From: a virus
IMG/VR virus record: IMGVR_UViG_3300029953_000001
Strand: one strand, 5' to 3'
Length of the DNA: 64,000 bases
Part shown: in pieces, positions 10,184 to 35,350 of the stretch
Layout: each line of letters opens with the position of its first letter
Numbering within the stretch: the first letter of the stretch is position 1
The notes under the pieces: model-generated
What the model saw: the letters and a program-made list of their open reading frames with translations, nothing else
What the model was told of the DNA's origin: nothing
The model's database searches: none
Translations under genes and position numbers: made by a program

Positions 10184-10395
10184 GCGAACCATTCAAGGTT
10201 CACAACTTCAGCACCATCGACAAGTGGATTGACATCACCGGCCCTGAGGGTCTGTCGATTCGTGTTGACTACGACGATGTAGCACACAAGTCTGTGGAAA
10301 ACGCAACCAAAAAGATGGTGGACTTGCTGAATAACCACTGGAATGAGTATGCCGGGAACGCCATCATGGCCCACCGGGCGGACATTCGGGACTGA
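10180..10395 (+). CDS. hypothetical protein (71 aa)
   Basis: ORF coupled to the previous gene by an ATGA overlap. Confidence 0.45.
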   Translation: MSEPFKVHNFSTIDKWIDITGPEGLSIRVDYDDVAHKSVENATKKMVDLLNNHWNEYAGNAIMAHRADIRD

Positions 10396-10449
10396 AAAAA
10401 TTCCCAAAATTACTGTTCAAAACGGTCGTGAGTCCCGTATACTGTGGGT
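10392..10449 (+). promoter_or_regulatory. promoter of the conserved family: UP tract aaaaaattcccaaaatta + TGTTCAAAAC box + TATACT; ATG 6 nt downstream (leaderless)
   Basis: ctgaaaaaattcccaaaattacTGTTCAAAACggtcgtgagtcccgTATACTgtgggtATG. Confidence 0.55.
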
Positions 10450-11037
10450 ATGACAGCGACAGCCAAGCTCGAACGTAAGATTGAGCACCTTGAGAACTTT
10501 CAGGAAATCGTCCGAAAGTTCGTTGTGCGTCTCGGAGACCCTTCCGAGTTCGAGTTCCGCAACGAGGTTATCGACCTTGGTTCCGTGAAGGGGAAATGCA
10601 CCTGTGACCAGCCCATCCGGTATATGTTCTTGATTTGGGGGCCGAACGGTCGCGTTGCCCCGGTCGGATGTGAATGCATCAAACACTTTCAAGCCTACAA
10701 CGAGACCCTGTTCGGCAAACTGGAGCACGCCCGTGAAGGGCTCATGGAAGCCCTCGCTCGTGAGAAGCGTGAGAGCGATGAGGCTCAGCGTCAGGACAAG
10801 GTGGCTGAGATTCTCCCCTGCTACGAACTGGCACGCCGGAAATTCCTCGCGGTCTGCAAGATGCACAAGGACAACATCGGCTACATGCTTCCGCGTGCGA
10901 TGTGGCTGCTTCAGTCCGACCTCATGAAGAAGGTTCAGGAGTACAAGACCACCAACGGTTACATCAATTTCTACAAGACCACCATCGTCAAAATTGAAAC
11001 GGTACTCGGCAAGTACGAGCGAGGGGAGCTACGCTAA
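10450..11037 (+). CDS. hypothetical Cys-containing protein (196 aa)
   Basis: ORF 10444-11037; start placed at ATG 10450. Contains GKCTCDQ...VGCECIKHF. Confidence 0.55.
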   Translation: MTATAKLERKIEHLENFQEIVRKFVVRLGDPSEFEFRNEVIDLGSVKGKCTCDQPIRYMFLIWGPNGRVAPVGCECIKHFQAYNETLFGKLEHAREGLMEALAREKRESDEAQRQDKVAEILPCYELARRKFLAVCKMHKDNIGYMLPRAMWLLQSDLMKKVQEYKTTNGYINFYKTTIVKIETVLGKYERGELR

Positions 11038-11258
11038 TGAACAAAATCCTAATCAAAGTTTCGGCACCATTACTCTACAAGTTCGTGATGGGCTTCGACC
11101 CTTCCTACGCGCAGATGAATGACCCGATTGTGAAGAAGTACGGCTCGTACTCGGGCAGCTACGACCGCTGGACGTGGCACTTGGTGAAATCGTCACCTAT
11201 CGCGGATGTCCTCTACCTCTTGAATTTATTCGCTGGTGATGACGTGGAGGTTTCATAA
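11037..11258 (+). CDS. hypothetical protein (73 aa)
   Basis: ORF with an ATGA overlap. Confidence 0.45.
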   Translation: MNKILIKVSAPLLYKFVMGFDPSYAQMNDPIVKKYGSYSGSYDRWTWHLVKSSPIADVLYLLNLFAGDDVEVS

Positions 11259-11467
11259 TGGCTGGAGCCTTAGTCAACTCGGTCGTTGAAGAAATGTCGT
11301 GGAGTTCCTCTAGGGAGAGCCCCGCCAGCATGGAACGTGAAGCTGAGCGGGACTTTCGACGCTCCAAAACTCCTCAGGAGTTGCACGACCGTCAGTACGA
11401 GTGGCGTGTCATCGAGGCTGTCTACCTCAAGCGTCTCACAGAGAGGAACCGTGATGCCAAAGCGTAA
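11258..11467 (+). CDS. hypothetical protein (69 aa)
   Basis: ORF with an ATGA overlap. Confidence 0.4.
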   Translation: MAGALVNSVVEEMSWSSSRESPASMEREAERDFRRSKTPQELHDRQYEWRVIEAVYLKRLTERNRDAKA

Positions 11468-11837
11468 GTACATCTCCGCCGAGGAACCAGCCAAGATTCG
11501 CATCGTCATCGGTGCCCGGTACACCGTCACCGACTACAACAGCCAGCCTCTCCCCGGCTACGTGAAGCCTGTACGGTGGGAGCCGTCCATGTCGATGTAC
11601 AAGTGTGAGAACGACCTTGGCGGTCAGGTGTGGGTCAAGCGTGGCTGCTTCGTCGCTGGTCTCAGTTCCAAGCCCAAGCCTTCTACTCACTGGTCGCTGT
11701 CGTATCCCAAGAGCGTCCGGCCCAAGCCAGTGCCGAAGTCATTCTGCGGACAGGGCAAGGCCCTCACGCCCGACAAGACCAAGGTCACGTGCCTGAAGTG
11801 CAAGAGCCTGATGAAGCTGCACACCGCCCCGGCGTGA
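11454..11837 (+). CDS. hypothetical basic protein (127 aa)
   Basis: ORF 11286-11837 with the start trimmed to ATG 11454. Lys/Pro-rich. Confidence 0.4.
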   Translation: MPKRKYISAEEPAKIRIVIGARYTVTDYNSQPLPGYVKPVRWEPSMSMYKCENDLGGQVWVKRGCFVAGLSSKPKPSTHWSLSYPKSVRPKPVPKSFCGQGKALTPDKTKVTCLKCKSLMKLHTAPA

Positions 11838-11923
11838 AGTAAGCAGTGGGGGAGCATCGTTCCTCATCACGCAGAACTTCTACCTCGCTATGGCCGAGTT
11901 AGATTTCTTGTCAAGGTCGTCAT

Positions 11924-11970
11924 GGAATATACATATTCCATAAAGCCGTTTAAAGAAATATGTATATTCC
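11924..11970. promoter_or_regulatory. AT-rich hyphenated palindrome GGAATATACATATTCC-N15-GAAATATGTATATTCC; candidate operator or protein-binding site in a 225-bp non-coding gap
   Basis: Two 16-bp palindromic half-sites that together form a roughly 47-bp inverted repeat. The element is conspicuously AT-rich against a GC-rich background. Confidence 0.45.
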
Positions 11971-12029
11971 TGCCGATGTGGTCAAGTGTGATGGTGGGAC
12001 TTCATTCGGTGAAGACCAATTTTTCCACT

Positions 12030-12064
12030 ATGCGTGCAAAGTCCTTTGGGGTATACTGGCCTAA
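12030..12064 (+). promoter_or_regulatory. promoter: TATACT -10 located 7 nt before the GTG start at 12065 (leaderless)
   Basis: aatttttccactatgcgtgcaaagtcctttggggTATACTggcctaaGTG. Confidence 0.35.
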
Positions 12065-33924: not shown

Positions 33925-33980
33925 ATTTTCTGTCCAGTTTCGTGTGGGGTTCGGTATACTGTCTGTGGAGGAAACAACCA
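33925..33980 (+). promoter_or_regulatory. promoter TATACT followed by a leader with a GGAGG SD before ATG 33981
   Basis: ttcggTATACTgtctgtggaggaaacaaccaATG. Confidence 0.4.
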
Positions 33981-34328
33981 ATGCGTGTATTCGGCAACAT
34001 CTACAGCAGAATGTCCGAGTCGGTGAACAAGGTTCCTGAGGTAGGCATGGGAGCCACCATCAACATGTACACCGACCGGCACGCCGCAACCATCGTGGAG
34101 GTCAAGTCGCCCACCAAGATTGTCATCCAGCAGGACTCAGCAGAACGCACCGACAGCAACGGCATGAGCGAGTCACAGGACTACGCCTTCACCCCCAACC
34201 CCAAGGCCGCGAAAGAAGTCTACACCAAGCGGAAGAACGGTCTCTGGATTAAGACCGGAGAGAGCAAGGGCAACGGTACCTCACTCCACATCGGCCAACG
34301 CAACGAGTACCACGACTACAGCTTCTAA
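33981..34328 (+). CDS. hypothetical protein (115 aa)
   Basis: GGAGG SD. Confidence 0.5.
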   Translation: MRVFGNIYSRMSESVNKVPEVGMGATINMYTDRHAATIVEVKSPTKIVIQQDSAERTDSNGMSESQDYAFTPNPKAAKEVYTKRKNGLWIKTGESKGNGTSLHIGQRNEYHDYSF

Positions 34329-34365
34329 GCGAAAGGGAGGGGCGGAGACGCCCCTCGCCCCTCAC

Positions 34366-34560
34366 ATGAAACCCTATGCCCTCTACGCCGTCCTGCTGGC
34401 TATAGCAGGGTCATCCTTTGGTGCTGTCGCCATGTACGAGATGCTGAAGCACCCGATGCCCGGTGACGACCTGAACTTTACCCTCATCTCCATCCTCTCC
34501 TACGCCTGTGTGTTCTTGGGATTCAAGGCCCTCGGCGAGACAAAAAATACCCAAAAATAG
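34366..34560 (+). CDS. small membrane protein (64 aa)
   Basis: Two hydrophobic segments. Confidence 0.4.
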   Translation: MKPYALYAVLLAIAGSSFGAVAMYEMLKHPMPGDDLNFTLISILSYACVFLGFKALGETKNTQK

Positions 34561-34596
34561 TGTTCAGAACGGCGGTTGCTCCGGTATACTGTGGGT
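34541..34596 (+). promoter_or_regulatory. promoter of the conserved family (UP + TGTTCAGAAC + TATACT); ATG 6 nt downstream
   Basis: caaaaaatacccaaaaatagTGTTCAGAACggcggttgctccggTATACTgtgggtATG. Confidence 0.55.
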
Positions 34597-34791
34597 ATGC
34601 GATGCTCCCACCAAGTACGGGTACCCGGAATGAACTTCTACCGGACACGTCCGTGCAAGAATCAGGCCCTCGACGGGTCTAACTTGTGCGGCACCCACCA
34701 GCCGAAGCCTGAGCCCGTCCGTGACGAGGCCAAGGAACGGTATAAGACCCTCATGTACGTCGCGGGTCTCCGCAGCCGGAGGGCACGCTAA
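34597..34791 (+). CDS. hypothetical Cys-containing basic protein (64 aa)
   Basis: Leaderless ATG 34597. Confidence 0.45.
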   Translation: MRCSHQVRVPGMNFYRTRPCKNQALDGSNLCGTHQPKPEPVRDEAKERYKTLMYVAGLRSRRAR

Positions 34792-34964
34792 TGGCTACCG
34801 TTACGATTGGTTACTACGACTGTGAACCGCGTCGTCGGTTCGATAAGGACTTCCCCTTTTACTGCCTGTTTATGCGTCTACGCGATAAGTACCGTCGCGA
34901 GACCCTTGAACGGCACTGGCAGAAGCTGGTCGCAATTCAGGCCAAGAGGATGTACTGGTAATGG
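34791..34964 (+). CDS. small hypothetical protein (57 aa; not in the supplied ORF track)
   Basis: MATVTIGYYDCEPRRRFDKDFPFYCLFMRLRDKYRRETLERHWQKLVAIQAKRMYW has protein-like composition. The overlapping 34807 frame is R-rich nonsense. Confidence 0.35.
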
Positions 34965-35176
34965 AAACCGTCAAGCAAGTTCGTGCTCTCGTCAAGGCCC
35001 ACAAGGGCCGGGTCATGATGGACGCCCTCGTTCAGGATGATACGTGGACGGTTCAGGTCATGAAGGTGGATGTACTCCACTACCTCAAGTTCTTCAACCC
35101 CACCGATGTATCGCCGGTCTACACCCGCGTGGACAAGCATGGCGACCTCCACCTTCACCCCATGAACAATCGCTGA
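34961..35176 (+). CDS. hypothetical protein (71 aa)
   Basis: ORF with an ATGA overlap. Confidence 0.45.
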   Translation: METVKQVRALVKAHKGRVMMDALVQDDTWTVQVMKVDVLHYLKFFNPTDVSPVYTRVDKHGDLHLHPMNNR

Positions 35177-35290
35177 GGCCCCATGATTATTCCCCCGATA
35201 CCAGAAGAACTCGCCCGGATGGAGAAGGCCAAGTCCGAGATTTACGCTGCCTTCGGTTAAAGTAGTCCATTTTTTGCCTCCTCTACTAAA

Positions 35291-35350
35291 GAGGAGCAAA
35301 GTCGAATTATTTTGGCAAATTTGTACCCAGAATACCTGAGACTCCGGTAT
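35291..35350 (+). promoter_or_regulatory. promoter TTGTAC...TATACT with ATG about 7 nt downstream (leaderless) for the CCA-adding enzyme gene
   Basis: tcgaattattttggcaaattTGTACccagaatacctgagactccggTATACTgtgtgtATG. Confidence 0.45.

Follow-up and report, generated by a model that had tools for sequence, protein, structure and literature searches.

The host sigma-70 holoenzyme transcribes cI of phage lambda from PRM as a leaderless message that starts on the AUG, and in the middle promoters of phage T4 the -10 element is preceded by a MotA box that is 12 ± 1 bp away and has its centre at -30. In bacteria, a TANNNT hexamer adjacent to an open reading frame (ORF) has been validated experimentally as a leaderless promoter in Deinococcus (PMC12340547, PMC3160421), and in silico surveys have found TANNNT-led genes in Acidobacteria (13%), Actinobacteria (19%), Deltaproteobacteria (16%) and Deinococcus-Thermus (39%) (PMC3160421). 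T4-type phages harbour repeated early promoters with an AT-rich upstream part, the PeSLs (PMC2839356, PMC4122927). Promoters of the phiKZ/AR9 type give leaders of 26-491 nt or 31-40 nt, and no leaderless transcript was seen in phiKZ (PMC5312081, PMC8244752). Here we examined 64,000 nt of viral DNA (IMG/VR record IMGVR_UViG_3300029953_000001), the whole of which is referred to as the window, and describe a family of repeated promoters found there. The family had been proposed from the letters of the window (the original prediction). A full member consists of upstream A/T tracts, a box in the -35 region and a G-TATACT -10 element that usually lies 6 nt before a start codon, so that most members would direct leaderless messages.

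A promoter family co-oriented with the genes

All six core sites named in the original prediction were present. Each consists of an A-tract, the box TGTTCARAAY and a TATACT hexamer (at 10438, 14133, 16636, 28140, 30081 and 34585) in the context (C)CSGTATACT, and the spacer between box and TATACT, previously given as 13-15 nt, is exactly 14 nt in all six. Expected counts were obtained from 300 dinucleotide-preserving shuffles. The arrangement box-N14-TATACT occurred 6 times against 0.0 expected, TATACT-N6-ATG 7 times against 0.07, and TATACT-N6-8-RTG 11 times against 0.54. In a census of GTATACT, 12 copies were found on the plus strand (7030-35348) and none on the minus strand, with 1.5 expected. 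We also constructed a position weight matrix (PWM) solely from 13 sites of three related contigs (L143-L145), with no window sites. This matrix recovered 10 sites in the window with scores of 10-38.6 bits (null expectation 0.02 per strand), all of them on the plus strand and immediately before ORF starts. As the counts are far above those in shuffled sequences and the sites are confined to the plus strand, the window sites are not due to chance and are strictly co-oriented with the genes. Together with the occurrence of the architecture in at least five further lineages (see below), these results bear out the proposal of a conserved phage promoter family; it is real, and the statistical evidence is overwhelming.

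The individual sites are as follows (N6 and the like give the number of nucleotides between hexamer and start codon, bits are PWM scores, and leader status is as predicted).

6985..7044, plus strand: weaker member; box TACCCAAAAA (L144-type), TATACT 7030-7035, N6, ATG 7042 of a DUF2958 gene; 10.0 bits.
10393..10452, plus strand: full promoter; box TGTTCAAAAC 10414-10423, GTATACT 10437-10443, N6, ATG 10450 of a 195-aa gene, leaderless; 38.6 bits; the public gene call begins at the identical ATG.
12045..12067, plus strand: -10-only member; GGGGTATACT, TATACT 12052-12057, N7, GTG 12065 of a 91-aa zinc-ribbon ORF; frame score -3.3 versus -66/-47 in the other frames; absent from public gene calls.
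14088..14149, plus strand: full promoter; box TGTTCAGAAC 14109-14118, TATACT 14133-14138, N8, ATG 14147 of a 65-aa gene; leaderless or with a 1-2 nt leader; 35.1 bits; coding score +11.9.
16579..16650, plus strand: full promoter with duplicated A/T tract; box 16612-16621, TATACT 16636-16641, N6, ATG 16648 of the ATP-dependent DNA ligase gene, leaderless; 21.0 bits.
27752..27811, plus strand: weaker member; box TGTGCAGAAG, TATACT 27797-27802, N6, ATG 27809 (101 aa); 12.3 bits.
28095..28209, plus strand: full promoter, leadered; box TGTTCAGAAT 28116-28125, TATACT 28140-28145, ATG 28207 behind AGGAG; 5' untranslated region of ~55 nt; 21.9 bits; coding score of 28207-28545 +20.9.
29100..29155, plus strand: decayed copy; A/T tracts and TTGTTCGGGG, no -10 hexamer, followed by TTG 29156.
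29757..29821, plus strand: -10-only element; GTGTATACT, TATACT 29764-29769, ~49 nt before ATG 29819; leadered if used.
30036..30095, plus strand: full promoter; box TGTTCAAAAC 30057-30066, TATACT 30081-30086, N6, ATG 30093 of the PARP gene, leaderless; 29.5 bits; orthologous promoter present in L143, L144, L145 and L150.
33910..33983, plus strand: weaker member with short leader; box TGTCCAGTTT, TATACT 33955-33960, GGAGGA 33967-33972, ATG 33981; 11.2 bits.
34540..34599, plus strand: full promoter; box TGTTCAGAAC 34561-34570, TATACT 34585-34590, N6, ATG 34597 of a 64-aa CCCH zinc-finger ORF absent from public calls; 37.4 bits.
35303..35362, plus strand: full promoter with variant box TACCCAGAAT; TATACT 35348-35353, N6, ATG 35360 of the CCA-adding enzyme gene, leaderless; 31.0 bits; a stem-loop at ~35275-35300 lies just before.
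38512..38531, minus strand: separate -10-only leaderless arrangement; TATAAT 38526-38521, N6, ATG 38514 of the Sir2 gene; neither A/T tracts nor an aligned box.

This inventory differs in several respects from the original prediction, which did not list the members at 33955 (ATG 33981) and 29764. The segment 29100-29155, regarded there as a degenerate copy, retains A-tracts and a partial box without a -10 element, and its upstream half scores 11.3 bits, which corresponds to the background level. Among the related -10 elements noted previously, those before 7042, 27809 and 35360 proved to be family members, while those before 12065 (hexamer at 12052) and the minus-strand 38514 (TATAAT at 38526) comprise the -10 element and the start codon only and lack the upstream blocks. 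The position 35351 that had been taken as a start codon falls inside the TATACT at 35348-35353; the ATG is at 35360, and the site is a full member (31 bits). The sites had also been described as intergenic. This does not strictly hold: several extend into the 3' end of the ORF before them, and the 7030 promoter lies wholly within the 3' end of ORF 6809-7045.

Two symmetrical elements lie close to members of the family. A perfect palindrome, CAATTTG-N5-CAAATTG, is present at 27753-27775 across the UP/-35 region of the 27797 promoter. It is a putative operator, and the 27797 copy would possibly be regulated. An inverted repeat at 11924-11970, with 21-nt arms (GGAATATACATATTCCATAAA and TTAAAGAAATATGTATATTCC) that are 86% complementary and a 5-nt loop, sits ~80 nt upstream of the 12052 -10 element in a 499-nt gap of the public calls. 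It may function as an operator, as a terminator or as an origin-like element.

We then aligned 25-26 sites from seven sources, anchored on TATACT, which was taken as positions -12 to -7. Information (26 sites) peaked at -55..-47, -43..-40, -36..-28, -17..-13 and -12..-7. The upstream tracts consist of A at -55..-50 and T at -49..-47, followed by A at -43..-41 and then W. The box columns read T-36, R-35, K-34, Y-33, C-32, A-31, R-30, A-29 and W-28. Y-Y-C-S occupies -17..-14, G-13 was found in 24 of 25 sites, and TATACT was invariant (25/25). Between these blocks the sequence is unconserved, and the register to the ATG is fixed. The imperfect palindrome GTTCnGAAC, previously put forward as the conserved element at the -35 position, turned out to be peculiar to the window phage. 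In the same columns its relatives have TGTCYAAAT, TAGCCAAA or TACCCAAAA, and only T-36, Y-33, C-32, A-31 and A-29 are kept across them. The lack of conservation of the palindrome, with only five box columns kept, argues against a dimeric activator that binds a palindrome. The flavour of the box thus varies somewhat by lineage (TGTTCARAAY, TGTCYAAAT, TAGCCAAA).

Conservation of the promoters in related phages

The window (G+C content ~0.54) derives from an uncultured, very large phage-like genome. Many contigs from peat and bog metagenomes, one of them of 0.2-1 Mb, carry identical genes, and the contigs of this population are ~100% identical. A megablast search with 20 kb of the window gave no DNA-level match to cultured phages. 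Homologues of the PARP protein number more than 600, and many of them are encoded on 190- to 720-kb contigs. The promoter architecture was found in at least five further uncultured lineages with G+C contents of 43-57%. Four contigs, whose PARP proteins are 72% (L143, a 405-kb contig), 64% (L144), 59% (L145, G+C content 0.43) and 59% (L150) identical to that of the window, keep the gene order PARP ... N_methyl ... HNH ... CCA ... AspRS-like. These contigs have the architecture ahead of their PARP and CCA orthologues as well as of further small genes. In the window, sites stand directly before the PARP, ligase and CCA enzyme genes, and the earlier assignment of family promoters to these three genes was correct.

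A strict 39-nt family pattern gave three matches in a JGI metagenome set. Two were the window phage itself and one was a new relative from wetland sediment (L151), in which the promoter alone resembles the window. Bacterial and archaeal genomes totalling 596 Gb contained no match to this pattern. The motif was also absent from two more distant PARP carriers, L149 (51% identity) and L147 (47%, with T4-like genes), which use Shine-Dalgarno (SD)-led or classical TTTAC/TATAAT promoters. Loose motif scans of IMG/VR returned single chance matches only. No relatives were obtained with the vault-like protein (4208-6790) as a seed against IMG/VR, or with PARP as a seed against GTDB genomes.

In two cases, rearrangements coincide with copies of the family. 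A variant contig, L124, is 97.6% identical to the window up to position 7022 (L124 4609), which lies inside the spacer of the 7030 copy. Beyond this break L124 has an unrelated 0.7-kb segment with a different gene, and the L124 orthologue of 7304-7660 is provided with its own leaderless cassette. L143 harbours a tandem duplication of 2.6 kb (4939-7297 and 7563-9978) comprising three small genes and PARP. Each duplicate carries the same two promoter cassettes, and the duplication begins and ends at copies of the family. It lies near the contig end and may be an assembly artefact.

Leaderless starts and corrected gene calls

Counted by hand, the 27 sites that have a TATACT include 22 with a leaderless arrangement. 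Of these 22, 19 have N6 and the others a spacing of 7 or 8 nt; the start codon is GTG in one case and otherwise ATG. N6 is the usual distance from a -10 element to +1, and with the hexamer at -12..-7 this spacing therefore places +1 on the A of the ATG. The promoter-proximal starts lack SD sequences, and the internal genes have GGAGG, GGAG or AGGA at a normal distance. Moreover, the N-termini of PARP (MAT...) and of the CCA enzyme (M..AA..V.NTL...GGCVRD) align across lineages from the leaderless ATG. Most messages of the family thus probably start at the AUG itself and are leaderless.

The leaderless arrangement that the original prediction had proposed for many genes thus holds for most sites, and it does not extend to 28140, 33955 and 29764, for which leaders with SD sequences are predicted. 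The -10 element at 28140 had been placed 6-8 nt before a start codon. TGA follows the nearby ATG, and the coding score of the GTG ORF (28152-28352) is -40.5, indicating that the transcript is leadered; the true start is at 28207 behind AGGAG. The 33955 site and one at 11986 in L143 have a leader of 13-14 nt that contains GGAGGA, and the L143 site at 3973 displays a matching short-leader design with GAGGA instead.

As the N-termini align from the leaderless ATG, errors in public gene calls were exposed. The public call truncates the CCA enzyme to 409 aa, with a start at 35429 rather than 35360 and a loss of 23 conserved residues, and in L150 the called PARP gene reaches too far upstream, into the promoter spacer (10001 versus 10025). 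Two zinc-finger ORFs, 12065-12340 (a CxxC...CxxC zinc ribbon) and 34597-34791 (a CCCH finger, Pfam E = 1.8e-4), were missed altogether. They fall in public-call gaps of 499 nt and 230 nt on identical contigs.

Recognition of the promoters

We consider, with a probability of about 0.68, that these sites act as strong, constitutive early-type promoters read by the host RNA polymerase with its primary, sigma-70-family sigma factor. The host holoenzyme is favoured by the match to UP elements, by the position of the box and by the canonical distance between the -10 element and +1. Against the E. coli UP-element consensus AAAWWTWTTTTNNNAAA, in which the A/T tracts are centred near -42 and -52, the sites matched at 9.5 of 14 positions compared with 5.1 ± 1.5 for random window positions, and scores of 11 or more were reached by 9 of 26 sites but only 0.17% of controls. 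A is present at -43..-41 in 19-20 of 25 sites, and adenines at -43..-41 are critical in rrnB P1, as described along with the UP consensus (PMC2412878, PMC4390567). The box at -36..-28 occupies the contact zone of sigma region 4. In a sigma-70 scan, all six core sites read TTCARA-16 nt-TATACT (9/12 matches), and this window core matches TTGACA at 4/6 positions at 16 nt. In the mechanism we propose, the C-terminal domains of the alpha subunits would bind the two phased A/T tracts (~-55..-47 and -43..-39), sigma region 4 would contact the -36..-28 box (T-R-K-Y-C-A-R-A-W), a poor TTGACA match, and sigma region 2/3 would read the almost invariant G(-13)TATACT. With the hexamer 6 nt from the start codon, transcription would begin on the A of the ATG. 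The first gene of each unit would be translated leaderless, presumably by 70S ribosomes, and the downstream genes would use ordinary GGAGG-type SD sites. The near-identical cassettes would mark module boundaries in a region crowded with small accessory genes.

Several points weigh against recognition by the unaided host enzyme. A typical -35 element resembles TTGACA and stands 17 ± 1 bp upstream of the -10 element; here the mean number of TTGACA matches is 3.0/6 at an 18-nt spacer, 1.3/6 at 17 nt and 2.7/6 at 16 nt. G-13, which is not the TGn of E. coli at -15/-14, and the C of TATACT are more rigid than in a generic host -10 element and persist across phages of 43-57% G+C. It is common for jumbo phages to carry genes for RNA polymerases of their own (PMC5312081). 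We infer the start point, the polymerase and sigma factor, the early timing and the mode of translation from sequence, the timing from gene content and analogy only. The rigidity of G-13 and TATACT could indicate a specificity factor, encoded by the phage or delivered by the virion, that reads the -36..-28 box and/or the rigid GGTATACT of otherwise real leaderless promoters. Candidates would be an alternative sigma factor, a sigma-appropriation pair like MotA/AsiA, or a phage multisubunit or virion RNA polymerase. Such a factor would be in line with a box that matches TTGACA at ~3/6 and differs somewhat between lineages, with the conservation of G-13 and the TATACT C in 24-25 of 25 sites, and with the absence of the pattern from the bacterial and archaeal genomes. 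In promoters of the phiKZ/AR9-type virion RNA polymerases, transcription likewise starts 6 nt after a conserved block (PMC5312081). On the other hand, the UP-like A/T tracts reach -55 at positions used by the bacterial alpha C-terminal domain, the -10/spacer/-35 geometry is that of the sigma-70 holoenzyme, and the known promoters of jumbo-phage RNA polymerases are contiguous AT-rich sequences with leaders of 26-491 nt, none leaderless. The MotA-like activator or sigma appropriation of the original prediction is not supported, since relatives do not keep the palindrome, TGCTT, the core of the MotA box, does not occur in the present box, and the small DNA-binding or sigma-like protein that was to be sought did not emerge: sigma, helix-turn-helix, MotA, AsiA and RNA polymerase families were not detected with Pfam and PHROGs among the 78 window ORFs, a search that covered the 64 kb of the window, from a genome of 200 kb or more. 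The sole PHROG match to a 'decoy of host sigma70' was rejected, as it belongs to an HNH/endonuclease VII protein. Recognition through a phage factor is thus possible but distinctly less likely than recognition by the host holoenzyme. A more speculative extension, which we regard as doubtful, is that a sigma-like or region-4-replacing protein brought or made by the phage reads the rigid G-13/TATACT and the non-canonical box, with the leaderless design serving a take-over strategy. If so, the first early genes would be translated by 70S ribosomes without dependence on SD sequences or initiation factors, at a time when the ADP-ribosyltransferase, PARP and polyvalent effectors shut off normal initiation in the host, and this jumbo-phage clade would possess its own combined transcription-translation 'early code'.

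It is also conceivable that the repeats serve mainly in recombination or mobility, as cassettes like PeSLs, or are another DNA-level repeat, with their closeness to start codons being secondary. In favour of this, small ORFan-like genes are bordered by near-identical copies, the sequence shared by the window and L124 ends within the spacer of the 7030 copy, and copies bound the 2.6-kb duplication in L143. As PeSLs are themselves repeated early promoters with an AT-rich upstream part (PMC2839356, PMC4122927), this interpretation involves no conflict with promoter function and does not compete with it. A GC-rich stem-loop adjoins only one copy (35348). Furthermore, the functional blocks are conserved whereas the spacers are free and the ATG register is fixed, a pattern that recombination alone would not be expected to preserve. 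Recombination as the primary role is very improbable; it would be a side-effect of promoter identity and not an alternative to it. We give still less credence to the idea that GGTATACT-N6-ATG is a signal at the RNA level, namely a non-SD ribosome-binding or processing site on read-through transcripts instead of a -10 element. The distance to the start codon is fixed, and as there are no rho-independent terminators between the units, read-through transcripts are likely to occur as well. Nevertheless, the element has no complementarity to the anti-SD used by the internal genes of the phage (GGAGG), its conserved blocks run 45 nt further upstream in promoter geometry, and at 28140 and 33955 it serves leadered SD genes and lies away from the ATG. 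The sites gave no Rfam match and no consistent RNA fold (z from -2.3 to +1.5). With no conserved RNA fold and no enrichment of terminator-like sites, an RNA element is unlikely. Recognition by the host holoenzyme thus remains the reading that we prefer.

Gene content of the window

The plus strand from 1 to 37 kb contains ~85 ORFs, mostly small, including genes for Ku, an R2K ATP-grasp protein, a vault-like protein, DNA ligase, an HNH-RNA ligase, PARP and the CCA-adding enzyme. The Ku-like end-binding protein (11-712) and the ATP-dependent DNA ligase (16648-17457) form a pair resembling that of non-homologous end joining, and the window also codes for an RNA ligase, the CCA enzyme and an NT5C nucleotidase. 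ORF 22846-23871 (plus strand) combines an N-terminal HNH motif (residues 23-62) with an RNA-ligase domain (164-314). In the public calls, an RNA ligase of 233 aa is all that is annotated at this position; the ORF may be a fusion, or the HNH part may be an upstream overlapping remnant of a homing endonuclease. The 861-aa protein of 4208-6793 (plus strand) contains major-vault-protein shoulder and repeat domains (Pfam E = 8.6e-25 and 1.6e-9), and its matches among deposited phages are confined to three uncultured 'huge phages' of 462-735 kb (38% identity). The 290-nt region upstream of this gene is devoid of the promoter family and has a normal SD. No tRNAs and no Rfam matches were found in the window.

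The minus strand from 38 to 62 kb encodes Sir2 and five giant proteins from consecutive ORFs (38706-61695; 860, 1605, 2485, 1442 and 825 aa). Four of the five are 'polyvalent', with ART-PolyVal, GNAT, ParB_N and SprT domains, and also combine Tpt1-like and PARP-like segments; the 1442-aa ORF (54897-59225) is the one without a Pfam match. Together with PARP (30093) and Sir2 (38514), these giant proteins give the window a strong NAD/ADP-ribose theme. No common motif was seen upstream of the minus-strand genes for polyvalent proteins.

Host and significance

The original prediction had expected the leaderless design to help place the host. It does so weakly, as leaderless promoters are not limited to one lineage and the family spans 43-57% G+C. 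The second-closest CCA enzyme among cultured phages is that of Tunturi_5, a jumbo phage of Tunturiibacter (Acidobacteriota). The motif was absent in the 41 kb of Tunturi_5 inspected, and no host link therefore follows from this phage. An acidobacterial host is compatible with the peat origin and the CCA match. SD-poor hosts are exemplified by the Bacteroidota, and the strong internal GGAGG SD sequences argue against hosts of this kind.

With this family, transcription units can be delimited in an accessory region that was otherwise opaque and comprises ~80 small genes, PARP, DNA and RNA ligases, the CCA enzyme and Ku. Phages of this jumbo-phage clade from soil, peat and wetland are predicted to use leaderless mRNAs for the first gene in the majority of these units, in contrast to phiKZ and AR9, which show no leaderless transcripts. 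Of immediate value for annotation are the mis-started and missed genes in public calls. The 55-bp cassette (UP, box, -10 and ATG) can also serve as a probe for relatives and possibly for narrowing down the host.

Comparison with known promoters

The early promoters and PeSLs of T4-type phages (PMC2839356, PMC4122927) resemble the present family in that they recur as early promoters whose upstream part is AT-rich, stand before small accessory or ORFan genes of plastic regions, and are presumably read by the unmodified host polymerase. The L124 replacement junction and the L143 duplication coincide with cassettes, two cases that are too few to show a tendency. In contrast to PeSLs, the adjoining GC-rich stem-loop is found here solely at 35348. 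T4-type early genes have leaders with an SD, whereas in the present family the -10 element abuts the start codon in a leaderless arrangement; the resemblance of the -35 region to TTGACA is weak, and there is no sequence homology.

The leaderless promoters of Deinococcus-Thermus, Actinobacteria and other groups (PMC3160421, PMC4007540, PMC12340547) also have a -10 element directly before the ORF without an SD, with +1 on the start codon and SD-led genes in the same genome. Their hexamer is TANNNT at ~6-7 nt before ATG or GTG, whereas the present one is a fixed G-TATACT to which strong UP-like tracts and a conserved box in the -35 region are added. Moreover, leaderless expression is a genome-wide habit of those hosts, and here it belongs to a repeated cassette borne by a phage.

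In T4 middle promoters (PMC7403470), a phage-specific box likewise replaces the canonical -35 element upstream of TAnnnT. The present box differs in that it lacks TGCTT, spans -36..-28 and ends a fixed 14 nt from the -10 element. It is accompanied by UP-like tracts, no MotA/AsiA homologue was found in the 64 kb of the window, and nothing suggests middle timing. The phiKZ/AR9-type virion RNA polymerase promoters (PMC5312081, PMC8244752) share the jumbo-phage context, a conserved block and a start ~6 nt downstream, but they are contiguous AT-rich blocks (for example AAATATATATTAT-N6-G) without -35/UP geometry, unlike the multi-block family described here. Lambda PRM-cI concerns a single regulated gene, compared with a repeated family serving a dozen units. 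The signal is thus conceptually familiar, and most likely represents a variant of T4-type early-promoter cassettes and of leaderless promoters in the style of Deinococcus and Actinobacteria, with no new mechanism.

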